Positions 3,196 to 64,000 are shown, counted from the stretch's first letter. The stretch is 64,000 bases of DNA from Cyanobacteriota bacterium (GCA_019752015.1 JAIEMQ010000015.1:140205-204204); one strand, 5' to 3'. Program-made: numbers and translations. Notes: generated from the sequence alone by a model not told the origin.

Positions 3196-3926
3196 TGGGC
3201 CTGACGAAGCGCCTGCTGGTACGCCTGCTCGGGCATGCGGCCACGGAATGGCTCGAGCTCGGCATCGGCCTCGCGGTTGAGCGCGGCCCGCTCGGCAGCC
3301 TCGAGCGCTTCGAACGTCGCGACCATCAGCGCCGCTTCAATCTCCGAGGTTCGCAGCAGCAGCTGATCGCGCGCGTGCCCCCGGGCGCTCGCCGCTTCAG
3401 GACGCAGCGCATCAAGGGCGCGCACCGCCGCGTCGAGCGCGGCGCCCAGTTTTGGGCCCGCCTTGTCGCTGCCGCGCAGCACCGTCAACCGCGCCAGCGC
3501 GCTTTCGATTTGCGCGCCGAGCGACCGCCGCCCGCGCGTGGCCGGCTGCGGATCTTCGACATCGGGCCCGCCTGCCGCATCCGGCGCAATGTTCGTCACG
3601 CCAACGGCGCGGCGCCAATCGTCGAAGGCATCGAGCACGTCGGCCTCGCAGAATTCAATGCGGACCGGGCGACGACGCGGACCCTTGCGGTAGTAGCGCT
3701 CGAAATAGCGATCGATGCCGGCCTCAGCGACTTTCAGCGGCACGCCCTGGATCGCCCAGCCTTGCACCTGCTCGAAGGCCGGCCCGGTGATGCGGATCAA
3801 ATGGCCGTCGTTTTTCTTGCTGAGATACGCCTCGAGATTGCGGGCGTACGATTCGACATCGATCACTGTTTGGATGACTGCCTTGAATCGGTGGATCGTG
3901 AATCGGTGGCTTGGCGTTCCCACCAA
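3150..3926 (-). CDS. hypothetical protein
   Basis: 258-aa ORF in the same-strand gene chain between coaX and the methyltransferase. No motif recognised. The start is uncertain (overlaps the coaX 3' end). Confidence 0.5.
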   Translation of the reverse strand: MVGTPSHRFTIHRFKAVIQTVIDVESYARNLEAYLSKKNDGHLIRITGPAFEQVQGWAIQGVPLKVAEAGIDRYFERYYRKGPRRRPVRIEFCEADVLDAFDDWRRAVGVTNIAPDAAGGPDVEDPQPATRGRRSLGAQIESALARLTVLRGSDKAGPKLGAALDAAVRALDALRPEAASARGHARDQLLLRTSEIEAALMVATFEALEAAERAALNREADAELEPFRGRMPEQAYQQALRQAQWLVVRRHFGLPEFP

Positions 3927-8978: not shown

Positions 8979-11519
8979 TTTTATGCGATCGATTTCGTCG
9001 CGCACGAGGCGCTCGGAGGTATCGGAGACGACCGAGCGAACGTTGTCGCGGATCAAGCGTTCGGAGGTTTCGGCCACCACGCCGGGCACGGTGTCGCGCA
9101 CCATTCGCTCCGAAGTGGCGGCGACGACGCCGGGCACGGTGTTACCAACGAGCCGCTCCGACGCTTCAGCAACCGCTCCAGGAACGGTATCGCGTACCAG
9201 CCGCTCGGAGGTCTGGGTGACGATCGCGGGCGTGGCATCGCGCACCAGCCGCTCGGACGTTTCAGCAACGACGGCGGGGACGACTTCACGCACCATGCGC
9301 TCGGACGTTTCAGCGACCACCATGTTGACCGTGTCGGAGACGACGATCGCCACGGTATCGCGAACCAGCCTCTCGGACGTTTCCGAGACGACCGCGGGCA
9401 TGGTTTCGCGGATCAGGCGCTCGGACGCTTCCGCCACGGCCGACGACACGGCGTCTCGCACCAGCCGCTCGGACGTCGCGGGGACGTTGGTTCGCACCGC
9501 ATCGCCGACCAACCGCTCGGAGGCTTCGTGGACGATCGACTGGACACTGTCGCGAATCAGACGCTCGGATGCCTCGGGCACCACCGATTGCACGCTGTCG
9601 CGGATCAGCCGCTCGGACGCTTCAGGAACAATCGCCTGGATGCTGTCGCGGATCATTCGCTCCGATGTTTCGGGCACGACGAATTGAACGGTGTCGCGAA
9701 TCAACCGCTCGGACGCCTCCGGCACGACCGTCTGAATCTTGTCGAGAATCAGCCGTTCTGAGGCTTCGGGCACGACGGTCTGAACCGAATCGCGGATCAA
9801 CCGCTCCGATGTTTCCGGCACGATCGACTGGACGCTGTCGCGGACCAGCCGCTCCGACGTTTCCGCGACGACGCCCGGCACCGTCTCGCGCACGACGCGT
9901 TCGGACGTTTCGGCGGCGACCCCCGGAACGGTGTCACGCACCACGCGCTCGGAGGCTTCGGCGACGACGCCAGGCACCGTGTCGCGGATCACCCGCTCTG
10001 ACGTTTCGGCGACGACACCCGGAACCGCATCGCGAATCAAACGCTCCGACGTTTCGGCGACGACCGTGCGAACCGTCTCGCGCATTGTCGTCGTCATCGC
10101 GTCCTTGAGGATTGCGCCAAACGTGCTCGCGTTCAGCCGATCGGCCACACGCGTGGCGATCTGATCGAGCATGGCGTCGGTGATCTTCGGCTCGACGATC
10201 CTGATCTCCGGCGGCGGCGGTGCCGGCGGATGCGCGCGCTCGCCACGCTCGAATGCCAGCAATGCATCGAAGTCGTCGGCGACCCTGGTCTCGACGGGCG
10301 GCGCCGGCGGCGCAGCGGTCACGCGCCTGATCGGCGCAACGGTCACGGGCGGCACAATCGGCGCCACCGGTTTTGGCGGAGCGGCAACGGGCGGCGGCGC
10401 GACCGGCGCGCGTTTCGGCAGCTCGGTTTTCACCGGCGCGGGCGCGGGCGGAAGTGGCGCGGGCGGTGCCGGCGGCGCCTGCGCCGCGGCGGCCTTGATG
10501 TCCTCGAGGCCGAAATCGAAATCGCGATCGGTGGCCGCCGGCGCGATCGGTTCCGATTCAGGAAGCTCGACCTCGTGGATGCCCATTTCCTTCGCGAGCT
10601 GCGCCTGCTCGACCTGTCTCGCCGCGCGAGCCTTGTCGTCTTCCGCAAACCACTCGTCGTCGACTTCGAAGACGCCGCTGGTCGGCGGTTTCGGTGGCGC
10701 CGGCGGCGGCTGAATTTCCGGATCGCTCAGGTCTTCGGCAATCTCGCGGCGGCCGGCTTTGGCTTCCGCGCGCGCCTGGCTCTCGGCCGTGCCGAACCAG
10801 TCGTCATCGACTTCGAAGACGGGATTGCCGGTGGCGCTGCTCGCCGTCGGTGGCGTGCGTCCCGGCGATCGCGGATCGATGGCGCCCCCTGCCTGCCCGA
10901 TGGGTCCGGAAGGATTGCGATTGGGCTTGGACGCAGGCGTCCGGCCCGAGAGCTGTTGATCGAGGGAATCAAACGCCTCGTCGAGCGTATCGAGATAGTC
11001 GGCAGGCTTCGGCGCGGACTCTTCGACGGAGGACACCGGCGCGGGCCGCGCGGACGTGGCTGGGCGCGCTGGCGCGGCCGCGGGGAGCTTCCTCTCCGCG
11101 GGACCGTCCACTGGCGTCACCGGACGGCCGGCCGAAGCCGGTTTCTCGTCGGATTTCATGCCCAGCAGTTCTTTCACCCGGCTTCTCACCACCGTCGGCT
11201 CGACCGGCTTCTCGAGCACGCCGTTCGCGCCGCTCGAGGCCAGACGCGCCTCGTCCACCGTCTCGAACGCGCCGGTCAGCAGCAGCACCGGCACCCGCCG
11301 CAACTCCGCCTTGCCGCGCATGAACTTGGCGAGGTCGTAGCCGCTAATCTGCGGCAACGTCGTGCCCGCGAGCACGATGTCGGGTTGATGCGCCGCCATC
11401 TTCTCCATCGCCTGCTGTCCGTCGCCGACGGAGATGACCTTGATCGGCGTTTCAGCGAACGTCAACGCAATCACCCGCTGGACTGTGATGCTGTCGTCCG
11501 CCAGGAGAAGGGTGCGCAT
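8961..11519 (-). CDS. receiver (CheY-like) domain protein with a Pro-rich linker and about 22 C-terminal 16-residue repeats
   Basis: N-terminus MRTLLLADDS...LLLTG...EKP has the REC pattern. The C-terminal 364 aa are E[TA]SER[LVM][IV]RD[TS]V..[VI]V. units. Confidence 0.85.
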   Translation of the reverse strand: MRTLLLADDSITVQRVIALTFAETPIKVISVGDGQQAMEKMAAHQPDIVLAGTTLPQISGYDLAKFMRGKAELRRVPVLLLTGAFETVDEARLASSGANGVLEKPVEPTVVRSRVKELLGMKSDEKPASAGRPVTPVDGPAERKLPAAAPARPATSARPAPVSSVEESAPKPADYLDTLDEAFDSLDQQLSGRTPASKPNRNPSGPIGQAGGAIDPRSPGRTPPTASSATGNPVFEVDDDWFGTAESQARAEAKAGRREIAEDLSDPEIQPPPAPPKPPTSGVFEVDDEWFAEDDKARAARQVEQAQLAKEMGIHEVELPESEPIAPAATDRDFDFGLEDIKAAAAQAPPAPPAPLPPAPAPVKTELPKRAPVAPPPVAAPPKPVAPIVPPVTVAPIRRVTAAPPAPPVETRVADDFDALLAFERGERAHPPAPPPPEIRIVEPKITDAMLDQIATRVADRLNASTFGAILKDAMTTTMRETVRTVVAETSERLIRDAVPGVVAETSERVIRDTVPGVVAEASERVVRDTVPGVAAETSERVVRETVPGVVAETSERLVRDSVQSIVPETSERLIRDSVQTVVPEASERLILDKIQTVVPEASERLIRDTVQFVVPETSERMIRDSIQAIVPEASERLIRDSVQSVVPEASERLIRDSVQSIVHEASERLVGDAVRTNVPATSERLVRDAVSSAVAEASERLIRETMPAVVSETSERLVRDTVAIVVSDTVNMVVAETSERMVREVVPAVVAETSERLVRDATPAIVTQTSERLVRDTVPGAVAEASERLVGNTVPGVVAATSERMVRDTVPGVVAETSERLIRDNVRSVVSDTSERLVRDEIDRIKQRHKA
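8964..10055 (-). repeat. in-frame 48-nt tandem coding repeat (about 22 units)
   Basis: Units counted in the translated ORF. The same periodicity shows in antisense ORFs 8799..9761 and 8968..9687. Confidence 0.9.
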
Positions 11520-13922: not shown

Positions 13923-15173
13923 ATGGCCGCACACGGTACGCTGTTCAGCGGGATGCTCCAGGAATTCGAGGGAGCCGCCCGCATTCTCAATCTCGAGCCG
14001 GGCATCTGGCAGATGCTCACTCACCCCAAGCGCCAGATCATCGTCTCCTGCCCGGTGCAGATGGACAACGGCAACATCGAGGTCTTCACCGGCTACCGCG
14101 TGCAATACAACATCACGCTCGGCCCCGCGAAAGGCGGCATCCGCTATCACCCCGATGTCACGCTCGATGAAGTGACGACGCTCGCGGCGTGGATGACGTG
14201 GAAGTGCGCGGTCGCGCAGCTGCCGTTCGGCGGCGGCAAGGGCGGCGTGATTTGCGATCCGACGAAGATGTCGAAGCGCGAGCTCGAAGCGCTGACGCGG
14301 CGCTACACGGCGGAGATCATCGACGCGATCGGCCCCGACAAGGACGTGCCGGCTCCCGACGTCAACACCAACGAGCAGGTCATGGCGTGGTTTTCCGACA
14401 CCTACTCGATGCACGTCGGCCACACCTCGACCGCGGTCGTGACCGGCAAGCCGGTTGAGATGGGCGGCTCGCTCGGCCGGCGCGAGGCGACGGGCCGCGG
14501 CGTCATGATCTGCGCGCGCGAGGCCGCGAAGCATCTCGGCTTCGGTCTGAAAGGCTCGCGCGTCGCAGTGCAGGGCTTCGGCAACGTCGGTTCGATCGGC
14601 GCGCAGCTGATGGCGGACCAGGGCGCGAAGATCATCGGCGTGACCGACTGGAAGGGCGGCGTCCAGAACGACAAGGGCCTCGACATTCCGAAACTGCAGG
14701 AGTGGGTCGCGAAGAACAAGACCGTCGCCGGCTTCGCGGGTGGCGAGCCGCTCGGCGCGAAGGACGTCTTCAAGCTGGACGCGAACATCCTCGTCCCCGC
14801 TGCGCTCGAAAAGCAGATCACTGCTGAAAACGTCAAGGACATCAAGGCCAAGCTGATCGTCGAAGGCGCCAACGGTCCGACCACGCCGGAGGCGCAAAAG
14901 GTGCTGAACGAACGCGGCGTGTTCGTGGTGCCGGACATTCTCGGCAACGCCGGCGGCGTCACCACCTCATATTTCGAGTGGGTGCAGGACCGTCACGGAT
15001 ACTTCTGGACCGAGAAGGAAGTGAACGAGCGGCTGGAAGCGAAGATGTGCCTGGCGTTCAACGCCGTGCTCGAGACGGCGCTGAAGTACAACGTCGACAT
15101 GCGCGTCGCGGCTTACATCGTCGCGATCAATCGCGTCGCGACTGTTACCAAGTTACGCGGTATGTACGCTTAG
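13923..15173 (+). CDS. gdh: Glu/Leu/Phe/Val dehydrogenase (glutamate dehydrogenase)
   Basis: GPAKGGIRYHP, LPFGGGKGGV, GFGNVG Rossmann motif. ATG 13923 is preferred over the listed 13854. Confidence 0.9.
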   Translation: MAAHGTLFSGMLQEFEGAARILNLEPGIWQMLTHPKRQIIVSCPVQMDNGNIEVFTGYRVQYNITLGPAKGGIRYHPDVTLDEVTTLAAWMTWKCAVAQLPFGGGKGGVICDPTKMSKRELEALTRRYTAEIIDAIGPDKDVPAPDVNTNEQVMAWFSDTYSMHVGHTSTAVVTGKPVEMGGSLGRREATGRGVMICAREAAKHLGFGLKGSRVAVQGFGNVGSIGAQLMADQGAKIIGVTDWKGGVQNDKGLDIPKLQEWVAKNKTVAGFAGGEPLGAKDVFKLDANILVPAALEKQITAENVKDIKAKLIVEGANGPTTPEAQKVLNERGVFVVPDILGNAGGVTTSYFEWVQDRHGYFWTEKEVNERLEAKMCLAFNAVLETALKYNVDMRVAAYIVAINRVATVTKLRGMYA

Positions 15174-53728: not shown

Positions 53729-56635
53729 TTATCGAGCAACCGTCTGGAGAAGCTTCCCAGACGATAACACTTCTCGAATGTATTTGCCGGTGTGCGACGC
53801 CAGGTTGTGCGCGACCTGCTCCGGCGTGGCCATCGCGAGCACGCGCCCGCCGTCCTCACCGCCTTCAGGACCCAGATCGATGATCCAGTCTGCGACCTTG
53901 ATCACGTCGAGGTTGTGCTCGATGACCACGAGCGTGTGCCCGGCTTCCAGCAACTTCCGGAACGCGGCCAGCAACTTCGCGATGTCGTCGAAGTGCAGAC
54001 CGGTGGTCGGCTCGTCGAGGATATAGAGCAGGCGCTCACCGGCATGCGATGACAGATGCGCCGCGATCTTGATGCGCTGCGCTTCGCCACCCGACAGCGT
54101 CGTCGCCGGCTGACCCAGGCGCAGGTAGCCAAGGCCGATTTCGTCCAGCACCTGCAGCCGCCGCAACACCTTCGGCGTGCTGCCGAAGAAGGTCAATGCT
54201 TCGCGGACCGTCATGTCGAGCACCTGCGTCACGTTCCTGCCGCGATACTTGACCTCGAGGACCTGCTGCTTGAATCGCCGGCCGTCGCACTGCTCGCACG
54301 GCACGAACACGTCGGCGAGGAACTGCATTTCGACGCGCACTTCACCTTCACCCTGGCAGGCTTCGCATCGGCCGCCGGGGACGTTGAACGAGAAGTGGCT
54401 CGCGGTAAGACCCCGCGACTTCGCATCCTTGGTCGCGGCGAACAGCTCGCGGATCGGATCGAACGCCTTGAGATACGTGACTGGATTCGATCGCGGCGTG
54501 CGTCCAATCGGCGTCTGATCGACGAGGACGACGTCGCTGACGAACTCGTGGCCTTCGAGTCGCTGATGCGCGCCGACCTTACGATCCCAATCGCCCTTGG
54601 CGCGCTTCAACGCGGCATAGAGCACGTCGTGCACCAACGTGGACTTGCCCGATCCGCTCACGCCGGTCACACACGTCAGCGTGTTGAGCGGGACTTCGAT
54701 GTCGACGCCCTTGAGATTGTGCTCGGTCGCGCCAAACAACTTGATGCGCTGCGGCGTGCCCTTGCGCCGTTGCGGCGGCACCGGGATGCTGAGCTCGCCG
54801 CGCAGATATTTCGCCGTCAACGATCGCGGCTCGCTGGTCAATCCCTGCAGCGACCCCGAGTAAACCACGCGCCCGCCGTGCTCGCCCGCGCCAAGCCCCA
54901 TGTCGACGAGATGATCCGCGACGGCGATCATGTCGGCGTCGTGCTCGACGACGATCACGGTGTTGCCCTGATCGCGAAGCTGTCGAAGGATCGCGATCAA
55001 TCGCTGGTTGTCGCGCGTGTGCAGGCCGATCGACGGCTCGTCGAGGACATACAAGGTACCGACCAGCGCCGAACCGAGCGACGTCGCGAGGTTGATGCGC
55101 TGCGCTTCCCCGCCCGACAACGTCGACGACAGGCGATCGAGCGTCAGGTAGTCAAGGCCGACGTCGCGGAGGAATCCAAGGCGGCGCTGAATTTCCTTCA
55201 GCACCTTGTCGGCGATCGCGGCTTCCTTTTCGGTCAGCTTCAGATCGGCGAAGAAGCGCTCCGCTTCGCGCACCGTCCGCGCCGATGCCTTGTCGATGGT
55301 CACGCCGCCGACATGGACATCGCGGGCCTCGCGCCGCAGCCGCGTGCCGCCGCAATCGGGACAGGTCAGGTAGCCGCGGTAACGGCTCAGGAACACGCGG
55401 ACGTGCACCTTGTACTTCTTCCGCTCGAGCCAGCGGAAGAAGCCGCGCACGCCCTCGAAATCATCGCCGTCGCCGTCCATGACGAACGCGATTTCCTTGT
55501 CGGTCAGATCGCGCCACGCCACATCCAGGCGCACGCCGCCATCCCTGGCGGCGCGCTTCAGCTCGGCGAGATGCGATCGGTAGTGCGGCTTGGTCCACGG
55601 CTCGATCGCGCCCTGGTTGATCGATTTCTGCTGATCGGGCACGACCAGCTCCTGATCGAGCTCGATGATGTTGCCGAAACCGTGGCAGGTCGGGCACGCG
55701 CCGAAGGGGTTGTTGAACGAAAACAGGCGCGGCTGCGGATCCTCGTACGGAATGCCGCAGGTCCGGCACTCGAAACGCTCCGAGAACAAGTGCTGGATCG
55801 GCTCGCCGCTCTCCTGCAGTTGCAGGGCCCAGGCCGCGCCGCCGCCTTCCGAGTAGGCGGTCTCAACAGAGTCCGTGATGCGCGTGCGCGCGTCCGCCGC
55901 GACCTTGATGCGGTCGACGACGACGCGCAGCGTGGTCATTTTCTTGAGGGCTTTCGGATCGACCTCTTCAAGCGTGATGGCCTGATCGCCGATCAAGAGA
56001 CGGCCAAAACCCTTGCGCCGGAGGTTTGCCAGGGCCACAGATGGCGCAGATTCATTAGCCAGGGCCGCAGAAGGCACAGAAGGCTCAGAATCAAGATCGA
56101 GGTTCTCGCCCTCCTCCGCGCCTTTCGAACCGTCTTCGGAGATCGCCATCACCGGCAGATCAAAGCCAAGCATCAGCCGCGTGCCCTCGGGCAGCGCGAG
56201 CAGGCGGTTCGCCACCACTTCGGCGGTCTCGCGGATCACTTCCTGTCCGCACTTGCGGCAGATCGTGCGGCCGACGCGCGCGTACAGCAGCCGCATGTAG
56301 TCGTGAATCTCGGTGACCGTGCCGACCGTGGAGCGCGGGTTCCTGACGGAATTTTTCTGGCGGATCGCGATCGACGGGCAAATGCCGTCGATGCGATCGA
56401 CGTCGGGCTTCTCCATCCGCTCGAGGAACTGGCGCGCGTACGCCGACAGCGACTCGACGTAGCGGCGCTGTCCTTCGGCGTAAATGGTGTCGAACGCGAG
56501 TGAGGATTTCCCGGATCCGCTGACGCCTGTAAAAACAATCAGCTGTCCGGCTGGCAGCGTGAGGTCGACGTTCTTCAGGTTGTGGGTGCGGGCACCACGA
56601 ATGACGAGAGCCGAATGACCGGTTTCCGGCGGCAT
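53729..56635 (-). CDS. uvrA: excinuclease ABC subunit A
   Basis: Two ABC modules (GVSGSGKSS, LSGGEAQR x2), 968 aa. Repeat-derived insert near residue 185. Confidence 0.96.
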   Translation of the reverse strand: MPPETGHSALVIRGARTHNLKNVDLTLPAGQLIVFTGVSGSGKSSLAFDTIYAEGQRRYVESLSAYARQFLERMEKPDVDRIDGICPSIAIRQKNSVRNPRSTVGTVTEIHDYMRLLYARVGRTICRKCGQEVIRETAEVVANRLLALPEGTRLMLGFDLPVMAISEDGSKGAEEGENLDLDSEPSVPSAALANESAPSVALANLRRKGFGRLLIGDQAITLEEVDPKALKKMTTLRVVVDRIKVAADARTRITDSVETAYSEGGGAAWALQLQESGEPIQHLFSERFECRTCGIPYEDPQPRLFSFNNPFGACPTCHGFGNIIELDQELVVPDQQKSINQGAIEPWTKPHYRSHLAELKRAARDGGVRLDVAWRDLTDKEIAFVMDGDGDDFEGVRGFFRWLERKKYKVHVRVFLSRYRGYLTCPDCGGTRLRREARDVHVGGVTIDKASARTVREAERFFADLKLTEKEAAIADKVLKEIQRRLGFLRDVGLDYLTLDRLSSTLSGGEAQRINLATSLGSALVGTLYVLDEPSIGLHTRDNQRLIAILRQLRDQGNTVIVVEHDADMIAVADHLVDMGLGAGEHGGRVVYSGSLQGLTSEPRSLTAKYLRGELSIPVPPQRRKGTPQRIKLFGATEHNLKGVDIEVPLNTLTCVTGVSGSGKSTLVHDVLYAALKRAKGDWDRKVGAHQRLEGHEFVSDVVLVDQTPIGRTPRSNPVTYLKAFDPIRELFAATKDAKSRGLTASHFSFNVPGGRCEACQGEGEVRVEMQFLADVFVPCEQCDGRRFKQQVLEVKYRGRNVTQVLDMTVREALTFFGSTPKVLRRLQVLDEIGLGYLRLGQPATTLSGGEAQRIKIAAHLSSHAGERLLYILDEPTTGLHFDDIAKLLAAFRKLLEAGHTLVVIEHNLDVIKVADWIIDLGPEGGEDGGRVLAMATPEQVAHNLASHTGKYIREVLSSGKLLQTVAR
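56028..56087. repeat. 30-nt tandem duplication inside uvrA containing CAGAAGGCA-type units
   Basis: gccagggccacagatggcgcagattcatta / gccagggccgcagaaggcacagaaggctca. 56059..56081 is identical to 13877..13899 upstream of gdh. Confidence 0.85.
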
Positions 56636-56738
56636 GATTCAGGATGAAGGTATACAGGCGCGAATTTCTGTCGCGCCCGTAACCTTCGATGTTACTCCTT
56701 TGCCGCTCTGATCTTCAAATCAACGTGCGATTACATTT

Positions 56739-58370
56739 CTATCGCGCGTCGGTCGTTGGCGCCGTAAACGGCTTGCCCTTCCAGAAACTGTTGAGGGTGG
56801 CCAGGCGTTGGGCGGACTTGATCTTGTTGCCGGCCGCCGCGTGGGCGGCAATCGCGCCCATCAACGAGCGCGCGCGATTCGGCATCCGCAACAGGCTGAC
56901 CTCGAAGGCATCGGCAGCTTCCTTCGCTTTGCCGGCCTTGAGCAGCACCTCGCCAAGCAATTCGTGTGACGGCTTGATCGGATCGGCGGCGCCGTTCGGC
57001 GCGCGCATCGTCTCTTCGAGGGCCGCGGCATCCTGCAGCAGCTTGATCGCCTGGTCGGTCTGGCCCTTCGCCTGCGCGATCAACGCGGCAAGCTCCATGT
57101 GCATCACGCGAACACCTTTGCCCGCGTCGGAGTTTCCACCGGCCGCGGGCTGCGCAGCCGGAGCGGGCGCAGCGCCGTGCTCGGCGTGCGGATTTGCCGG
57201 TGCGGGCGCGCCGCCTGGCGCTGCCTTGGCCTTCGCGGCCAGCATCTCTTCCATCTTCGTGGCTGTCGCCATGTCGCCGGTCTTCACCGCGCTGAATCCG
57301 TTGGCCAGGATCGTCTCGTTGGACGCGCCCTCGGCCACCGGCTGCACCTTCCACTCTTCCGTCTCGATGATGTAGCGGGCGCGGACCAGCGCGAGAGCGC
57401 CCGTGGCGCGCGCGTTCTTCGTCGTCTCCGCCATCCACTCGAACGCCTGGATGCGCTCGCGCGCGCCGGCGTAGTCACCGAGCTGCAGGAACCCGTACTG
57501 GCCCCAGTCGCCGGAGTGCGACATGTCGCCGGGCACGTCGCCGGGACGCCACAGCTCCTTGCCGACGTTGTAGGCGCGGATGTTCTGGTTGGCGACCTCG
57601 TTCCACATCCCGTGCTGGATGAAGATGTGCGTCGGCATGTGGACCGCGTGCGACACTGCCGGGACGATCTTCGCGTAGACCTTTGCGGCCTCGAGCGCGA
57701 GCGGCGCGTGGATCGGATCGTCGAAGGCGTGGATGATGTAGTGCACCGCGCCCGGATGATTCGAATTGCGCTTGAAGACATCCATCGCCAGCGCGGCGGC
57801 CTTGACGTTCAGGCGCGACGTGCGATCGTCCACGGCGGCCGAGGCGCTCAGGATCGACAGCGCATAAAACGTCGTCACTTCATCGTCGTTCGGGAACTGG
57901 TTGTGGAGCCGCTCCATGGCGGCCATGTAATTGAGACGGCGCTGTCGCGAGTCGCCCTCGCCCCAGAGCTCTTCGACCGCGTTCACAAAGCCCTTCTCGC
58001 GATCGGTCGGCGCCTTGGCGGCGCGCGCGGCGCGATCCGGCCCCAGCCGCGCGAGCACCTTGCGCGGCTCGGTGAAGTCCATCTGCGAGTTGAGCGGATG
58101 ATTGTAGGCGAGCGACTCGCCCCAGTAGGCCATCGCGAAATTCGGCTGGGCCTTCTGCGCGAGCTGGAATTCCTCGATCGCCTGCTTCCATCCAAAGCTG
58201 TGCAGGATGGCGACGCCGCGCAGGAAGTGGCGCTGCGCTTCAGCGGATCCGGATGTGGGGAATGACAGCTGGCCGACGTTTTCGAGCTGGGCAAAGGCGG
58301 GCGTAGCAAGCGAGAGCGCAAAGACCGCGCAGGCAAGGAGTCGACAACACATACGGACCTCCGGGGTCAT
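56739..58370 (-). CDS. secreted tetratricopeptide-repeat protein
   Basis: Signal peptide plus TPR-like helical repeats at the N- and C-termini. Confidence 0.65.
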   Translation of the reverse strand: MTPEVRMCCRLLACAVFALSLATPAFAQLENVGQLSFPTSGSAEAQRHFLRGVAILHSFGWKQAIEEFQLAQKAQPNFAMAYWGESLAYNHPLNSQMDFTEPRKVLARLGPDRAARAAKAPTDREKGFVNAVEELWGEGDSRQRRLNYMAAMERLHNQFPNDDEVTTFYALSILSASAAVDDRTSRLNVKAAALAMDVFKRNSNHPGAVHYIIHAFDDPIHAPLALEAAKVYAKIVPAVSHAVHMPTHIFIQHGMWNEVANQNIRAYNVGKELWRPGDVPGDMSHSGDWGQYGFLQLGDYAGARERIQAFEWMAETTKNARATGALALVRARYIIETEEWKVQPVAEGASNETILANGFSAVKTGDMATATKMEEMLAAKAKAAPGGAPAPANPHAEHGAAPAPAAQPAAGGNSDAGKGVRVMHMELAALIAQAKGQTDQAIKLLQDAAALEETMRAPNGAADPIKPSHELLGEVLLKAGKAKEAADAFEVSLLRMPNRARSLMGAIAAHAAAGNKIKSAQRLATLNSFWKGKPFTAPTTDAR

Positions 58371-58383
58371 TCTACTGGTATCT

Positions 58384-58433
58384 GGTGCCTGGGTGCCTGG
58401 GTGCCGGGGTGCCGGGGTGCCGGGGTGCCGGGG
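58384..58433. repeat. GGTGCCKG octamer x6
   Basis: ggtgcctg ggtgcctg ggtgccgg ggtgccgg ggtgccgg ggtgccgg gg. Ends at the stop of 58434..59549. Confidence 0.9.
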
Positions 58434-59549
58434 TTACTTCTTGTAGGTCAACGATAAGACCGCATACGCCGTGGCCGCATCGCTCATGAACTTACCGGTG
58501 TCCGATTGCTGATCGCGTTCCTTGTTCGGCGAGATCGCCGACCACTTCCCTGTTGAGCGATCCTGGTTGCGGCGCAGCCAGTCGAGTCCCTTCGTAAGAC
58601 GCGCGTCTGCGGCCGGCACGCCGACGGATTGTAACGCCAGCGTGGCAAGCGCCGTGGCGTATCCGTCGGTGCGCATGTCACTCGTGGTGTTGTCCATGCG
58701 CTTGTACGAACCGAGCGCCGTGGTGTTCCAACCGCCGTCGGGTTGTTGCGCGGCAAACGCCGCGTCGATCGTGGACTGACGCTGTTGCGGTGTCAGCAGA
58801 TCCGGCACTCGGCTCGAGGCCCACAGGCCCATCAGCTGATTCAGCAGCGAGACGTTGGCGTGTTGCTTCTGGAAATATCCTTTCAGCAATTTCACTCGAT
58901 CGGCGATCTCGGCGGACGCACCATAGCCTTCCGGCGCGGACCCAATCGCGAGCGCCGCCAGCGATGCGCCGAAGTACGGCGAGTTCGGCGACTCCGACGG
59001 ATCCATCTTGAAGTTGAGCCACGTCCAGGCGCCGGCTTCTGGGCCGGTCTTCATCTGCAGGCCCCACATCACCCCGAGGGCGGTGCGCGTGTCGTCACTC
59101 AACTTGCCTGCGGCCGCATCGCGACGACTGAGGACGACGGCGTTCATCACCGCCTCGATCGCGCGTGACTCGCTGGTCTTTGGAATGCCGCGCGTTTGAT
59201 CGGGATACCAGGGTTCAACGTCGCGCCAGGCGCGCGCACGCGTCAACAGATTGCCGACGATCTTCTCTTCAGCGGGAGATGGCGCCCGCTCGTTGAGCAG
59301 GCCGCGAAGCTCGGGCCGCGCGAGTGCGTATGGCAGCGTCGTGTGGCACGACATGCAATACGTTCCACGATCGCGCGCCGCGCTCGGCCACGTCGTCCAC
59401 CACTCGGCGCGGCTATCGAGATAGGCCGCGGCGGCCTTCGGATCCCACCCCGAACCATCAACGGCGCGAGCCTGAAGCTGCGTCGCAATGGATACAGCAG
59501 CACCGATTGCGAGTCCGATCGGCAAGATGATCCGAAGCGCTATCTTCAT
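58434..59549 (-). CDS. secreted protein with a CxxCH motif and prenyltransferase/squalene-cyclase-like QW repeats
   Basis: Signal peptide, YCMSCHT, QW-like QQPDGGWN, RNQDRSTGKWS, GPEAGAWTW. Confidence 0.6.
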   Translation of the reverse strand: MKIALRIILPIGLAIGAAVSIATQLQARAVDGSGWDPKAAAAYLDSRAEWWTTWPSAARDRGTYCMSCHTTLPYALARPELRGLLNERAPSPAEEKIVGNLLTRARAWRDVEPWYPDQTRGIPKTSESRAIEAVMNAVVLSRRDAAAGKLSDDTRTALGVMWGLQMKTGPEAGAWTWLNFKMDPSESPNSPYFGASLAALAIGSAPEGYGASAEIADRVKLLKGYFQKQHANVSLLNQLMGLWASSRVPDLLTPQQRQSTIDAAFAAQQPDGGWNTTALGSYKRMDNTTSDMRTDGYATALATLALQSVGVPAADARLTKGLDWLRRNQDRSTGKWSAISPNKERDQQSDTGKFMSDAATAYAVLSLTYKK

Positions 59550-59588
59550 GGTGACCTCTCGATAGCGGCAATTATAGGCGGCGCGCGA

Positions 59589-59915
59589 CTAGCGAGCGGT
59601 TCGTTTCGTGCCTTCGGTCTTGGGCCGTTTGCTCGTGGCTTTCGCCACGCGGGCTCTCTTCGGGGCCTCCGTGGCTTCATCGTCCGGCGCGCCGACCACG
59701 ACAAAATCCGCGGTCTCCCACGTGAACGGCGGCGCCTTACGGCGATCCTTAGAGCGGCGCTCAGCGGGAGCGGATTCGGTTGAGGCCCTGCGATCGGCTG
59801 CGCGGCGATCCCAGGAGACCACCACGGGCAAATCGGCGGTTTTGCGGCTCAGAGCCTCGAATCGGCGCGTCGCACCGCGACGCACGATTATTGCGACTGG
59901 TTTCTTCTTCGCCAC
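59589..59915 (-). CDS. small basic hypothetical protein (DRR/ERR-rich)
   Basis: 108-aa ORF. No motif recognised. Confidence 0.45.
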   Translation of the reverse strand: MAKKKPVAIIVRRGATRRFEALSRKTADLPVVVSWDRRAADRRASTESAPAERRSKDRRKAPPFTWETADFVVVGAPDDEATEAPKRARVAKATSKRPKTEGTKRTAR

Positions 59916-59994
59916 GCACGGTGTCTATCGGTCGATCGCTGAGCAGCCTTGATAAGAACGCGACCACCGCGACACTGTTTTGCCAGGAATATTT

Positions 59995-60046
59995 TGGAGC
60001 CGGCAATCGGACTTGAACCGATGACCTGCTGATTACGAATCAGCTT
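59995..60046 (-). tRNA. tRNA-Thr(CGU) 3' portion only (anticodon arm, variable loop, T-arm, acceptor 3' strand, CCA); probable att repeat
   Basis: Minus strand reads GCTGA-TTCGTAA-TCAGC AGGTC ATCGG-TTCAAGT-CCGAT TGCCGGC T CCA. The upstream sequence has no D-arm or matching acceptor 5' strand. Confidence 0.65.
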
Positions 60047-60235
60047 GGGCGGGAAATCGGCAGTGATCGCGCGTCCTCGTGTGTGCGCGTTTCCTCGGGA
60101 TTTCGTGACTTGCGTGATCTTGCAGATCCGCGCGGCTTCTCCCGTCCGTCCACTATCCGTCCACCGATTTCGGTCGCGCTGCGCGATCTCAGCCGTTCCC
60201 AATGAGAGTGTTTCACGCCGGACCGTGGTCTAGTC

Positions 60236-60263
60236 GTCAAGTTTTTTTGCTGTAAAACTTGAC
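60236..60263. promoter_or_regulatory. perfect 10-bp inverted repeat upstream of abiEi (candidate operator)
   Basis: gtcaagtttt-tttgctgt-aaaacttgac, 32 nt upstream of the ATG. Followed by the partial repeat aacttga. TTGACA lies within the right arm. Confidence 0.45.
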
Positions 60264-60294
60264 AACTTGAGCCGATGCCCGGCACAGTGGAGTC

Positions 60295-61044
60295 ATGGGA
60301 AAGGGCAGCAAATCGCCACCGTCGCGGCAAACCGCGAAACTGATCCGCGACCGCATCGAACGGGGCGGCGAGCGCATCTGGCGCTTCGATGATTTCCCCG
60401 GTGTCCCGATGTCGGCGGCGGCGCAGGCGCTGTCGCGCCTCGCGCGGGAGGGCCAACTGCAGCGTCTGAGCAAGGGCGTGTATTACCACGCCCGGGAGAC
60501 AGCGCTCGGCAAGAGCCGGCCGAACCCCGTCGCGATCAGCACGCTCGCCGCTCGCCGCAGGACCGTCTTCCCAGCGGGCGTCGCCGCCGCGAACCTCCTT
60601 GGCTTCACGACACAGGCGGCGGGCCGCAGCGAGGTCGCGACAAGCGCGCTCAGCCTCCCGCGGAAACTGGTCGGGGCCGACACGCTGATCCACACGCGGC
60701 GGCCGGAAGCGTGGCGCGCCCTCTCCGACGCGGACGCTGCGCTGCTCGATTTCCTGCGGCGGGGCGGCAGGACGAGCGAACTTGGTCCCGACGAGACGAT
60801 CCGGCGTCTGGAAGCGCTCCTGCGGAAGCCGGGCCGTTTTGAGCGTCTGCTCAAGGTCGCCGATACGGAGCCGCCGCGCGTGCGGGCGATGCTCGGCGCG
60901 CTCGGCGACGCGCTCGGCAAGAACCCGCGCGCGCTCAAGCGGCTCAGGGACTCCTTGAATCCGCTGTCGCGTTTTGATTTTGGCGCCCTGTCGGCGTTGC
61001 CCGGCGCCAGTCGCTGGCAGGCGAAGGAGCCACGTCCGGCATGA
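60295..61044 (+). CDS. abiEi: type IV toxin-antitoxin system AbiEi family antitoxin-like protein
   Basis: Called by size, position and the 4-nt overlap with the AbiEii-type gene. Has an N-terminal wHTH-like region (AAQALSRLAREGQLQRLSKGVYY). Confidence 0.7.
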   Translation: MGKGSKSPPSRQTAKLIRDRIERGGERIWRFDDFPGVPMSAAAQALSRLAREGQLQRLSKGVYYHARETALGKSRPNPVAISTLAARRRTVFPAGVAAANLLGFTTQAAGRSEVATSALSLPRKLVGADTLIHTRRPEAWRALSDADAALLDFLRRGGRTSELGPDETIRRLEALLRKPGRFERLLKVADTEPPRVRAMLGALGDALGKNPRALKRLRDSLNPLSRFDFGALSALPGASRWQAKEPRPA

Positions 61045-62003
61045 GGCTCTTCGAGCACCGGGATTTCGAACAGGTGGTGCTGCAAGCGGCGGAGCATTTC
61101 CGCGGTCAGGGCTTGCGCCCGGCGCTGATCGAAAAGGACTACTGCGTCACGGAAGCGCTGCGCATCATCGCAGCGACCGTCGGCGACAAGGTGATTTTCA
61201 AGGGCGGCACGAGCCTGTCGAAGGGCTGGAACCTCATTCAGCGGTTTTCAGAAGACATCGATATCTTTCTCGATCCGCGCGCCTTCGATCCCGTGCTTGC
61301 TAAGCGCGGGATCGATCGCGAGTTGAAGAAGCTTCGCGATTCGGTCGAGCGCCATCCGGCACTGACCTTTCTGAAGGAAGAAAGCCAAACGATCGGCGGC
61401 TTCGGGCGCTCCGACCGCTTCTCCTTCAGGCAGCGTTTCGGCGGGGCTGGTGAGGTCGCGGGACATGTACTCGTGGAGGCCGGAACCGCCAGCGGGCGCG
61501 AGCCGACGGCTGTCGTCGAACTGCGCTCGTACGTGAGTACGTTCCTTCGGGACAGAGGCGTCTCGCTTGGCGCCGAAGACGAAGGCGGCTTCACGATGCG
61601 GTTGCTCCACTTCCGCCGGACGTTCGTCGAGAAGCTCTTCGCCATTCACGGCAAGGTGGAACTGTTCAAGCGCGAGGGGCGCCCGATCGGATCGTATGCG
61701 CGGCATTACTACGATCTCTCCCAGCTCGCCGCGCAGCCGGACGTGATGACAATGCTGCGCTCCGACGAGTACGCAGCCATCAAGGCCGACTACGACGAGA
61801 TCAGCCGGGCGCATTTTGCGCAGAGCTATTTTGCGCCACTAGACATGAGCTTCGCGACGAGCGACGCGCTGTTCCCGGCGGGCGAATTGGTCGCCACGCT
61901 CGGCAGAGAATACGAGACGCAGTGTCGCCAGCTTTGCCTTGGCCCCTATCCGGTGTGGACGGACGTGCAAGCGCGGTTTCGGGAGCTGAAGGAACTTCTC
62001 TGA
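61041..62003 (+). CDS. abiEii: nucleotidyltransferase AbiEii/AbiGii toxin family protein
   Basis: IEKDY, VIFKGGTSLSK, RFSEDIDIF motifs typical of DUF1814/AbiEii. Confidence 0.85.
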   Translation: MRLFEHRDFEQVVLQAAEHFRGQGLRPALIEKDYCVTEALRIIAATVGDKVIFKGGTSLSKGWNLIQRFSEDIDIFLDPRAFDPVLAKRGIDRELKKLRDSVERHPALTFLKEESQTIGGFGRSDRFSFRQRFGGAGEVAGHVLVEAGTASGREPTAVVELRSYVSTFLRDRGVSLGAEDEGGFTMRLLHFRRTFVEKLFAIHGKVELFKREGRPIGSYARHYYDLSQLAAQPDVMTMLRSDEYAAIKADYDEISRAHFAQSYFAPLDMSFATSDALFPAGELVATLGREYETQCRQLCLGPYPVWTDVQARFRELKELL

Positions 62004-62063
62004 AAGGAACACGAGCAGCCTAAAGTTCTTGGCCTGCGTCCACGATAGACGGAGCGGATATCG

Positions 62064-62759
62064 ATGAGTTTTGTTTCCAAGTGGTTCGACAGGCAGGTTC
62101 AGCCCGCGCCGGCCGCGACGCGTCTTCAAACTGTGATGTCACGTCTCACACCCGAGGATGCGATCAAGGCGCTGGAAAGCTCGCCGAGCGAAGACCTTCG
62201 GCTTGCTGCCGGCATCTCGATTCTCACGCTGTTCATTGCGCAGAAGCTTCACACGGAAGTGATGACGCTCGTGGACGCACTCCCGTCAGCTGTTCGGAAG
62301 ACCGCCGTCAATCCTGCCCACGACGTGGTCGTCTTCGAAGCTGCTGCCTACTGTCACTTCCAGTTGATGAAGGAATACCTCGGCGACGAGGACGATAGCC
62401 ACGACGGCGACTATTATTTCAATGCGTTGCGAGAGGCCGTCCACTTGACATCGGCACTGCTGAAGAGTCACACGGAGTTCTCAGTCGATGAACGGCTGTT
62501 CGCGAATCGCGTCATCCGCTATTCGATGAAAGTTGGACCCCTTGCGGTTCGCGATGAAACGGCGGAACTGGAAGCCCTCGTGCTGCAATCGTTACAGAAG
62601 GGAAGTCCCATCGGAGCAGCTCACGCACCGACGTTGTTGAATCTTGCGCTCGGGATTGCGCTCAAGACGGCGATCGCGATCTTCCACAACACGTGGATGA
62701 CGCCGCTTCGCCAGACTGCGCAGAATCTCCATCAGTACGATTTGGACAATCCGGCATAG
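62064..62759 (+). CDS. hypothetical protein (lower-GC island cargo)
   Basis: 231-aa ORF, predicted helical, no motif recognised. Confidence 0.55.
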   Translation: MSFVSKWFDRQVQPAPAATRLQTVMSRLTPEDAIKALESSPSEDLRLAAGISILTLFIAQKLHTEVMTLVDALPSAVRKTAVNPAHDVVVFEAAAYCHFQLMKEYLGDEDDSHDGDYYFNALREAVHLTSALLKSHTEFSVDERLFANRVIRYSMKVGPLAVRDETAELEALVLQSLQKGSPIGAAHAPTLLNLALGIALKTAIAIFHNTWMTPLRQTAQNLHQYDLDNPA

Positions 62760-62841
62760 GGAGGCGAGTCTTGCACCTCGCGTTCCCCATGCTCACCTCA
62801 GAGTGCGCTCAAGTTGCCGTCGCTCTGATAAATGCCAAACG

Positions 62842-62930
62842 GCGGAAGCGCGCCGGGCGGGTCAAGGGCGCGACGAACCGAATCGTGGAGCGGCGAAGCG
62901 GACCCTTGAGCCGCCCGGCGCGGCTTCCGC
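62842..62930. other. 27-bp-stem hairpin between convergent island genes
   Basis: gcggaagcgcgccgggcgggtcaaggg ... cccttgagccgcccggcgcggcttccgc (one mismatch, one bulge, 34-nt loop). Confidence 0.75.
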
Positions 62931-62955
62931 ACAATATCCGGTCGGAGCGACGGCG

Positions 62956-64000
62956 TCAGCGACTGATCGCCACTGCATGACCGACGCTGGTGCCGCGTGA
63001 ATCTTGGCTGATTCTCTGGCGCGACGAGGACGAGCCGCTCTTGTGCTCCAGTGCCGAGCGATGCGACACCTCTCGGTTCAGCGCTCGCCCCAGCTTCACC
63101 TTGTCGTCCGTGTAGATCCGTGCGTCGTGCTGACCGCGCGAGACGGCGACGTACGCGAGCCGTTGATTGACCAATTTCTCACTCGCACGATCGGTCTCGA
63201 CGTGCACGAGGACCCGACCCGTCGTCTGCCCCTGGCTGCTGTGGCTCGTCATCGCGTATCCGTAATCCAGGTGCGTTCGGTCGCTCGGCTCGAATGACGA
63301 CGTTCGACCGGAATCCCATCGAACCTCCATTCGCCCGTTCTGACGGATGCGCTCGATCGTGCCAAGCTCCCGATTTGCGACACCTCGCTCTCGATCCGGT
63401 GCGGTCATCTGCACACGGTCGCCGGCTGAAAAGGCCCGCTCGGTTTCGCGATACAGAGTCACGCCTTGGAGTCGCCGTGGATCGTACGTAACCCTGGTCC
63501 CTTTGTCGGTTCCGACTGTTAGTCTGTTCTCCCTCGCGTCGACGTGCTCGACCCGCGCGTAGTCGCCGGCGTGGATGCCGAGCGTCTTGCTGCCGTGGCT
63601 ATACCGCACCACATCGCCGACTTCGTACCGTTCCGCCCACTGTCGATCGGTGCCGGTGATCTCGTTGCGCGGCACGAGTACGGGCGTTCGATGCTCCTGG
63701 CGATCGACGTGACCCTCGGACTGCATCGCCCGGTGGATCGCGCCGTTCAGCTCCTGTCGCGATTGATTGTCCGGCGAGACGACAAGAGTTGAGTGCGGGT
63801 CCTTGACGTACTCGTTCGCGATGGCCTCCAGCCTCTCGTTCCGCGGGCCGATTTCGTGGACTCGGCCTTGGCGGTCCAGCTGCTCGACTGCGCGTTGGAC
63901 CTCGCCGCGGGACAACTGTTCGACGACCGCTTTCAGCTCCTGGTCCTTCTGCCGGACGATGCCGTCGAGACGCGCGGTTTGAATGCCCGCTTCTTGAAGC
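62956..64000 (-). CDS. conjugative relaxase (TraA/TrwC/MobA-MobL type), C-terminal helicase-associated part; 5' end outside the window
   Basis: The frame is open to base 64000 (...ARLDGIVRQKDQELKAVVEQLSRGEV...). C-terminus has LAYVAVSRGQHDARIYTDD. Confidence 0.75.
   Translation of the reverse strand, partial: LQEAGIQTARLDGIVRQKDQELKAVVEQLSRGEVQRAVEQLDRQGRVHEIGPRNERLEAIANEYVKDPHSTLVVSPDNQSRQELNGAIHRAMQSEGHVDRQEHRTPVLVPRNEITGTDRQWAERYEVGDVVRYSHGSKTLGIHAGDYARVEHVDARENRLTVGTDKGTRVTYDPRRLQGVTLYRETERAFSAGDRVQMTAPDRERGVANRELGTIERIRQNGRMEVRWDSGRTSSFEPSDRTHLDYGYAMTSHSSQGQTTGRVLVHVETDRASEKLVNQRLAYVAVSRGQHDARIYTDDKVKLGRALNREVSHRSALEHKSGSSSSRQRISQDSRGTSVGHAVAISR

Follow-up and report, generated by a model that had tools for sequence, protein, structure and literature searches.

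Does the incomplete threonine transfer RNA gene (tRNA-Thr) near the right-hand end of this DNA mark the edge of an integrated mobile element, and is that element still intact? We analyzed the whole stretch of 64,000 nucleotides, referred to here as the window, and compared it with related loci from other genomes. The half tRNA-Thr gene is real; it is the attR scar of a small mobilizable island in the tRNA-Thr gene of a soil acidobacterium. In full, the explanation that we favor, with considerable confidence, is that positions 59995-60045 are the attR core of a tyrosine-integrase island in the tRNA-Thr(CGU) gene of a Vicinamibacterales-like acidobacterium, and that this island has since decayed by a deletion between its integrase and relaxase genes. 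An earlier reading made from the sequence alone (the sequence-only reading) had proposed a displaced tRNA 3' copy at this position, which the comparisons below bear out, and had implied an intact element, which they contradict.

The tRNA-Thr fragment and its attachment arm

Read as the reverse complement, 59995-60046 consists of a single A followed by an anticodon arm (GCTGA-TTCGTAA-TCAGC, anticodon CGT = Thr), a 5-nt variable loop (AGGTC), a T arm (ATCGG-TTCAAGT-CCGAT), the 3' strand of the acceptor stem (TGCCGGC), a discriminator T, and CCA, all on the minus strand. The D arm and the 5' strand of the acceptor stem are absent upstream of the fragment, and the tRNA 5' half (GCCGGCGTAGCTCAGTTGGTAGAGC) has been swapped for unrelated sequence. 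ARAGORN, one of the checks proposed with the sequence-only reading, called no tRNA in the entire 64-kb window, and Rfam returned no tRNA at E<=1 in 58000-64000. The 20-nt anticodon-arm pattern occurred once in the window, against 0.01 occurrences expected by chance; the fragment is far beyond chance.

Relatives of the relaxase gene at the right edge of the window were searched among GTDB representatives (top identity 79%), and 80 relaxase loci were compared for tRNA context; loci carry labels of the L001 type (L002, L004, L005 and so on). The fragment was identical at 51/51 nt to the 3' part of the intact tRNA-Thr(cgt) gene of L089, and showed 98% identity to that of the intact gene in L004. 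Base 60046 is the first mismatch to genuine tRNA-Thr(CGU) genes. The identity of the fragment, its parts, and its missing D arm and acceptor 5' strand were thus read correctly from the sequence alone, and only the end, placed at 60046, has to be moved by one base to 60045.

The 125 nt adjoining the fragment are a conserved attachment arm containing GGTGGACGG repeats. Window 59995-60173 is 82% identical to the sequences with which the complete elements L009 (16123-16299) and L005 (17280-17458) end on the right, and this homology breaks off precisely at 59995, the CCA end, which is the boundary between chromosome and element. The relaxase gene is directed toward the tRNA-Thr fragment in L005, L009, and the window alike. 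With the element arm to the right of the fragment and a native chromosomal neighbor to its left, these comparisons indicate that the element extends rightward, as had been proposed. A tandem arm-type repeat, GGTGGACGGATAGTGGACGG, is located at 60146-60165 and is unique in the window; the same tandem motif was observed approximately 55-65 nt downstream of intact tRNA-Thr genes in L082-84, L088, L004, and L070. The GGTGGACGG repeats are presumed to be integrase arm-binding sites, and an arm motif on both sides of the attP core is the pattern expected for arm-type sites, consistent with such a role.

The left neighbor of the fragment is a conserved gene encoding a 371-aa protein. In L089, the closest relative of this flanking gene, an intact tRNA-Thr(cgt) gene lies approximately 0.9 kb upstream of the 371-aa ortholog on the same strand, and a promoter-proximal sequence, TATAATTGC(C/G)GCT, is common to the window and L089. 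This linkage shows that the gene left of 59995 is the native downstream chromosomal neighbor of the tRNA. The L089 locus has neither AbiE genes nor relaxase nor P arm, and represents a related genome without this insertion, the comparison that the sequence-only reading had recommended. Between 1944 and 2916, L089 carries the intact tRNA-Thr(cgt) gene, a PhdYeFM antitoxin and weak-PIN toxin pair, a 25-nt anticodon-arm repeat (2851-2875), and then the 371-aa gene. This different remnant, bearing its own toxin-antitoxin (TA) genes, shows that the integration site has been reused. An RtcB-like gene lies beyond the tRNA-Thr gene in L089.

The integrases of L082-84 and L088 are 80-83% identical to that of L005 and lie beside intact tRNA-Thr(cgt) genes with the same arm repeats. 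In L004 and L070, it is a remnant of the same integrase that adjoins the intact tRNA-Thr gene. These associations show that the clade targets tRNA-Thr(CGU). By analogy with these six loci, an intact tRNA-Thr gene would be expected at the far end of the window element (attL), beyond base 64000. The distance from integrase to attL in relatives ranges from approximately 90 nt (L070) to >3 kb with inserted cargo (L088); in L088, a PadR-MacB cassette is located between the integrase and the tRNA-Thr attL.

A truncated copy among complete relatives

In complete relatives, genes for an integrase, an excisionase, a helix-turn-helix (HTH)/M78 ImmA-like regulator, two proteins of unknown function, a VirD4/TrwB coupling protein, and a 926-aa TrwC relaxase-helicase are followed by a probable terminator hairpin, variable cargo, and attR. 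The cleanest case, L008, has a tRNA-Asp gene at 2677-2753 and, at 14447-14493, a second copy of 47 nt of its 3' part, in direct orientation and without a mismatch. Between these repeats are genes for a tyrosine integrase, an HTH_17 excisionase-like protein, an HTH-XRE/M78 ImmA-like protein, two unknown proteins, TrwB/VirD4, TrwC, an IS91-like protein, and a DUF433/DUF5615 pair. The relaxase of L008 contains the TrwC domain (PF08751, 3e-62), and that of L002 is a single 926-aa open reading frame (ORF). Repeats of tRNA 3' parts were also found in L033 and L044 (29 and 27 nt, respectively), and of the 80 relaxase loci, more than 20 have a tRNA gene (Lys, Met, Asp, Leu, Pro, or Thr) upstream in the same orientation. 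L005, L008, and L009 share 81-87% identity along the backbone that runs from the ImmA-like gene through the relaxase gene, while their integrase and end modules differ. An integration/excision module is present in L005 and L008, and one metagenome-assembled genome (MAG) carries two complete elements (L008 and L009).

No mating-pore genes were found in the approximately 12 kb of the relatives. With a TrwC and a TrwB of their own and no mating-pore genes, these elements are integrative mobilizable elements (IMEs) in the sense of PMC5704250, and a helper conjugative element would be needed for their transfer. The complete members of the family are IMEs of approximately 12 kb rather than large conjugative elements, and their insertion sites are in various tRNA genes. 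The cargo slot between relaxase and attR in the complete element L007 holds orthologs of the AbiEi and AbiEii genes of the window (73% and 80% identity, respectively).

Several further observations were made on the relatives. L091 (11803-21224) is a complete relative whose relaxase part is 84% identical to that of the window and is followed by a large defence-like cargo of SNF2/DUF2283 helicase, SACS-like, FRG, and type I restriction-like proteins. A 407-aa protein (P0019, 84% identical) had been considered as a closer truncated remnant; it proved to be a frameshift-split call in this complete element. A conserved segment of approximately 150 nt ending in a tRNA-Met-like anticodon arm (TTGGGCTCATAACCCAA) occurs in L009 (11287-11438 and 15224-15377), L005 (16348-16496), and L008 (13222-13360). 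In L009, copies of it flank a 918-aa cargo ORF on both sides. The segment gave no match in Rfam and does not occur in the window; it may mark where cargo inserts or be a relic of an att site. In L007, an apparent 5' part of a tRNA-Leu gene lies beyond the AbiE cargo on the minus strand (9140-9200), beside a small SecG-like gene and without an ARAGORN tRNA call, and may be an att site of another type.

The relaxase gene of the window differs from those of the complete relatives. The sequence-only reading had described a TraA/TrwC-like relaxase running off the window, and the gene does belong to the TrwC family. Its Pfam matches were AAA_30 (C-terminal end only), SH3_13, and UvrD_C_2. The source protein MBY0494520.1 (P0001, 552 aa), which is 100% identical over the 347 residues encoded in the window, aligned through its residues 121-552 to residues 490-924 of the 926-aa L002 relaxase, starting from helicase motif Ia (PTSRAAHKL). 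Only the C-terminal 435 of 926 residues are therefore present, with neither the TrwC relaxase domain (PF08751) nor Walker A. Residues 1-121 are the antisense of an integrase gene, with 70% identity (E=9e-48) to the plus-strand translation of L005 3415-3780, which corresponds to integrase codons ~72-193. These alignments show that relaxase codon ~490 is joined head-on to integrase codon ~72 approximately 250 nt beyond base 64000. The integrase anticipated beyond base 64000 thus exists as sequence, but without its ~71 N-terminal codons. The junction implies the loss of approximately 6 kb, an interval in which L005 encodes its excisionase, regulator, coupling protein, and relaxase domain. These results suggest that the window copy is a decayed island rather than a working mobile element.

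The database entry for this ORF (approximately 64000-64615, off the window) is an "AAA family ATPase" of 552 aa. The entry is misleading: it describes a chimeric ORF made of antisense integrase and truncated relaxase-helicase.

Two loci from other projects, L004 and L070, have comparable integrase-relaxase fusions next to an intact tRNA-Thr gene. BLASTP alignments spanned the junctions of both the window and L004, and one shared ancestral fossil was considered for the two. This was rejected: DNA mapping places the integrase-side breakpoints apart (L005-equivalent positions 3313 vs 3780), L004 keeps approximately 6 more relaxase nt than the window remnant, and the window remnant resembles the full-length L002 gene more than it does L004. 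The relaxase-side breakpoints of L004 (~9740) and the window (~64250, off the window) are approximately 6-20 nt apart, at helicase motif Ia. Both remnants are stop-free, with a ratio of nonsynonymous to synonymous substitution rates (dN/dS) of 0.16.

The course of events that we propose is as follows. An incoming circle would have carried a P arm, a core copying the 3' 51 nt of tRNA-Thr, and a P' arm, with GGTGGACGG repeats on the arms. A heterobivalent tyrosine integrase would have recombined this circle with the chromosomal tRNA-Thr gene, and, as the repeat begins at the anticodon stem, the crossover would have taken place in the anticodon loop. The tRNA would thereby have been rebuilt at attL, beyond base 64000, while the original 3' half stayed at attR joined to the P arm. 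A later illegitimate deletion of approximately 6 kb, from integrase codon ~72 to relaxase codon ~490, would have removed the integrase N-terminus, excisionase, regulator, coupling protein, relaxase domain, and helicase Walker A, and so immobilized the island. The intact survivors are attR, AbiEi/AbiEii with an operator-like repeat, the gene for a 231-aa protein, and a hairpin.

Four points weigh against this explanation. The relaxase remnant is stop-free for approximately 431 codons, and its dN/dS against relatives is 0.12-0.19, with dS saturated; this points to recent decay or to selection that still acts on the fragment. For the truncation, the evidence is a single annotated protein, which comes from the short-read MAG assembly that also contains the window. 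The far end of the element beyond base 64000, with the intact tRNA-Thr gene and the rest of the integrase remnant, has not been seen. Finally, no intact tRNA-Thr gene was present in the fetched flanks of the complete relatives L005 and L009, on contigs CAWDRS010000007.1 and CAWJAP010000024.1. With regard to the second point, the similar fusions seen in L004 and L070, which other projects produced, make an assembly chimera unlikely. With regard to the last, an unorthodox attL in L005 and L009, suggested by the missing tRNA-Thr, was considered and set aside: the L088 cassette shows that cargo can separate integrase and attL, and the attL of L005 and L009 is therefore probably outside the fetched flank.

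L005 and L009 also share a 32-nt tRNA-like fragment comprising T loop, acceptor, and GCCA (L005 2453-2484 and L009 2564-2595, both on the minus strand). It is Gln-like (U1-A72, G73) and inverted, lies approximately 100 nt downstream of the integrase stop codon, and is co-directional with the integrase. It occupies the place expected for the P' arm and tRNA-Thr, and no second copy was found at either locus.

Among the other explanations, one holds that the window element is a cis-mobilizable element (CIME), which is a decayed remnant of an IME or of an integrative and conjugative element (ICE) that keeps attL and attR (PMC5704250). The remnant would then still move: a related element that arrives and integrates next to it would excise it and take it along, and AbiE would spread in this way. 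The attR and arm repeats are intact, the same lineage has many related complete elements with cognate integrases, the tRNA-Thr/371-aa gene locus has been reused as the L089 remnant indicates, and the concept of CIMEs and accretion is established (PMC5704250). Against it, attL was not seen and the window contains neither a tandem element nor evidence of trans-mobilization or accretion. No identical remnant was found in unrelated genomes, the sole other copy being a 2.8-kb Logan contig from one sample, which ends at about window position 64082; an exact 32-mer scan of metagenome contigs gave no match. We regard this explanation as unlikely.

To the same small extent, we allow that the remnant is a selected unit, domesticated or helper-dependent. 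It would then be either an immobilized AbiE defence locus with a functional truncated helicase, or a unit moved in trans, like a CIME, by the abundant complete relatives in Acidobacteriota. This reading draws on the recurrence of integrase-relaxase deletions at the tRNA-Thr locus (window, L004, and L070), with close relaxase-side breakpoints in the window and L004 and a stop-free helicase fragment that is apparently under purifying selection.

Somewhat less probable again is an intact and currently mobile IME or ICE, with full-length relaxase, integrase, and transfer genes just past the window. The complete relatives L005 and L009 share the same attR arm, the visible relaxase part is stop-free and under purifying selection, and the AbiE genes are intact, all of which would suit such an element. 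However, MBY0494520.1 loses its relaxase homology at residue 490 of 926 and continues as antisense integrase, so the excisionase, ImmA-like protein, coupling protein, and relaxase domain cannot sit between the integrase and relaxase parts.

That the half tRNA is an unrelated pseudo-tRNA or older relic, with AbiE, the orphan ORF, and the helicase fragment belonging to the chromosome or the element lying to the left, is very improbable: tRNA-like relics away from current boundaries do exist (the Gln-like fragment of L005/L009 and the Met-like anticodon-arm repeats), but the conserved element arm adjoins the fragment on its right, the AbiE genes have the same cargo position in L007, the left neighbor is the native downstream neighbor of tRNA-Thr in L089 with syntenic chromosome further left, and there is no tRNA or integrase elsewhere in the window.

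Cargo and chromosomal setting

The features of the decayed island and its left flank are listed in Table 1.

Table 1. Positions of the island remnant, its cargo, and the flanking chromosomal gene in the window.
Feature	Position	Strand	Basis
Conserved 371-aa prenyltransferase/cyclase-like gene, chromosomal flank	58434..59549	-	ortholog 88% identical in L089
attR core, the 3' 51 nt of tRNA-Thr(CGU), anticodon stem to CCA	59995..60045	-	sequence and identity to intact tRNA-Thr
Element-side attachment arm (P arm) in place of the tRNA 5' half	60046..60173	-	82% identity to L009/L005 element ends
Perfect inverted repeat GTCAAGTTTTTTTGCTGTAAAACTTGAC upstream of abiEi	60236..60263	+	sequence
AbiEi antitoxin/transcriptional regulator, 249 aa, cargo	60295..61044	+	Pfam and PADLOC
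AbiEii nucleotidyltransferase toxin, 320 aa, cargo	61041..62003	+	Pfam and PADLOC
231-aa protein, lower G+C, extra cargo	62064..62759	+	ORF, composition
Long hairpin directly 3' of the relaxase stop codon	62816..62954 (inner stem 62842-62930)	.	folding
C-terminal RecD-like helicase part of a TrwC-family (MOBF) relaxase, 5'-truncated remnant	62956..64000, off window	-	Pfam and P0001

The cargo described by the sequence-only reading stood up well. AbiEi matched Pfam AbiEi_4 (PF13338) and DUF6088, as well as the PADLOC AbiEi model (E=1.7e-32) over nearly its full length, and AbiEii matched PF08843 (E=2.3e-27) and the PADLOC AbiEii model (E=1.4e-55) over its full length. The start codon of abiEii overlaps the stop codon of abiEi by 4 nt (ATGA). 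The dN/dS values against L007 were 0.17 for AbiEi and 0.09 for AbiEii. Together with the shared slot, these values suggest that AbiE is a cargo of the family under purifying selection. The predicted function, a toxicity neutralised by AbiEi and protection against phage, receives indirect support from the dN/dS of 0.09-0.17. The GTCAAGTTTTTTTGCTGTAAAACTTGAC repeat is kept almost base for base in L007, whereas the surrounding DNA has diverged. AbiEi systems are autoregulated; on this basis, the repeat is a putative AbiEi operator/promoter. As an addiction module, AbiE probably helps to retain the remnant.

The 231-aa ORF has a G+C content of 0.56-0.58 vs ~0.64 around it, a difference that had been visible from the sequence alone, and is absent from L007. 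It gave no Pfam or PADLOC match. It has 58 remote homologs of approximately 230 aa each, forming a small family. Its AlphaFold model is all-helical and confident (predicted local distance difference test, pLDDT, 90; predicted template modeling score, pTM, 0.88), and no match to this model was found in PDB and BFVD at E<0.1. The large hairpin noted earlier was also evident on folding of 62760-62960, with a minimum free energy of -111 kcal/mol and z=-5.2; none of 200 shuffled sequences (0/200) was as stable. In L002, L005, and L007, the relaxase gene is likewise followed by a homologous hairpin with a core of TCAAGGG...CCCTTGA, and the structure is probably a terminator between convergent genes.

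The chromosome further left is syntenic with that of Vicinamibacterales: the contigs L004 and L070 are collinear with the left flank at 50.2-56.6 kb, where a 968-aa UvrA is encoded. In comparison with uvrA in L004 and L070, the island appeared to be inverted. This was ruled out by L089, in which tRNA-Thr lies natively upstream of the 371-aa gene and is co-oriented with it, as in the window. uvrA is linked to the tRNA-Thr locus in three genomes (window 53729-59549, L004 2479-8334, and L070 3135-9643). It is located on the 5' side of the tRNA in L004 and L070, and on the 3' side in the window, past the 371-aa gene and a gene for a 543-aa tetratricopeptide repeat protein. The genes between uvrA and tRNA-Thr are unrelated, showing that the backbone at this hotspot has been rearranged.

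The best relatives of the relaxase fragment were from Vicinamibacterales/Acidobacteria gp6 MAGs (74-79% identity). MBY0494520.1 and the 371-aa flank protein (K2Y23_09885) are encoded on one NCBI contig of 213,126 nt. The source MAG is labeled "Cyanobacteria bacterium" in NCBI, while the flank is syntenic with, and the flank and island genes find their best matches in, Vicinamibacterales/Acidobacteriota; these data suggest that the record is probably mis-binned or mislabeled.

With its clear boundaries, the locus cleanly illustrates a tRNA-Thr(CGU) integration hotspot in the Vicinamibacterales, an abundant soil lineage of which little has been cultured. Through it, a widespread family of small TrwC/TrwB mobilizable islands comes to light across Acidobacteriota. 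Its members swap integrase modules, and hence tRNA targets (Thr, Asp, Pro, Lys, Met, Leu), and carry TA or defence cargo. Our literature search returned only general ICE/IME papers and no description of such a family in Acidobacteriota, where it is apparently undescribed. For annotation, the AbiE pair here should be regarded as island cargo and MBY0494520.1 as a chimeric pseudogene call. All the features fit established models, namely tRNA-site integration, element decay, and retention by an addiction module, and no new question is opened by them.

Comparison with known systems

AbiE (AbiEi/AbiEii) systems, which pair a winged-helix regulator with a DNA polymerase beta-like nucleotidyltransferase, are type IV TA and abortive-infection systems of Lactococcus and Streptococcus agalactiae. 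As in known AbiE systems, the window contains a gene for the AbiEi regulator that overlaps the following gene for the AbiEii nucleotidyltransferase, both with near-complete or complete matches to hidden Markov models, and an upstream inverted repeat. Unlike in those systems, the pair is here the cargo of an acidobacterial island. The operator candidate is a single inverted repeat with 10-nt arms, in contrast to the paired repeats of S. agalactiae AbiE.

TrwC and TrwB of plasmid R388 are a MOBF relaxase-helicase and a VirD4-type coupling protein, respectively. The complete relatives resemble R388 in their domain order, in which a RecD-like helicase comes after the TrwC relaxase, and in the TrwB-type coupling protein encoded next to it. 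In contrast to R388, they are integrated rather than plasmid-borne and carry no Trw mating-pore genes, and the window gene is the C-terminal part of the helicase only.

CIMEs were first described beside ICESt1 and ICESt3 of Streptococcus thermophilus. Like CIMEs, the window element has lost its genes for integration and transfer, has an intact-looking attR, and occupies a reused tRNA hotspot; unlike them, it still contains pieces of the integrase and relaxase genes.

The closest counterparts of the complete relatives are tabulated IMEs that target tRNA 3' ends, such as NBU1 (tRNA-Leu, Bacteroides), IME_Sag2603_tRNAlys, and BcenGI2 (tRNA-Ala) (PMC5704250). Like them, the relatives encode a tyrosine integrase together with an excisionase, as well as a relaxase and a coupling protein of their own; they lack mating-pore genes, measure approximately 12 kb, and have direct repeats of tRNA 3' parts and TA cargo. 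They differ in their hosts, which are Acidobacteriota (Vicinamibacterales and Terriglobia MAGs), and in their relaxase, a large MOBF TrwC-helicase fusion. Unlike these IMEs, the window copy is a remnant without integration and mobilization functions. An IME has its own integration/excision module, and in the window copy the integrase is 5'-truncated and the excisionase falls within the deleted interval; an IME also has its own relaxase, and here the TrwC domain and Walker A are gone and the coupling protein falls within the same interval. Its status as a CIME depends on attL, and the window element can be called a decayed IME.

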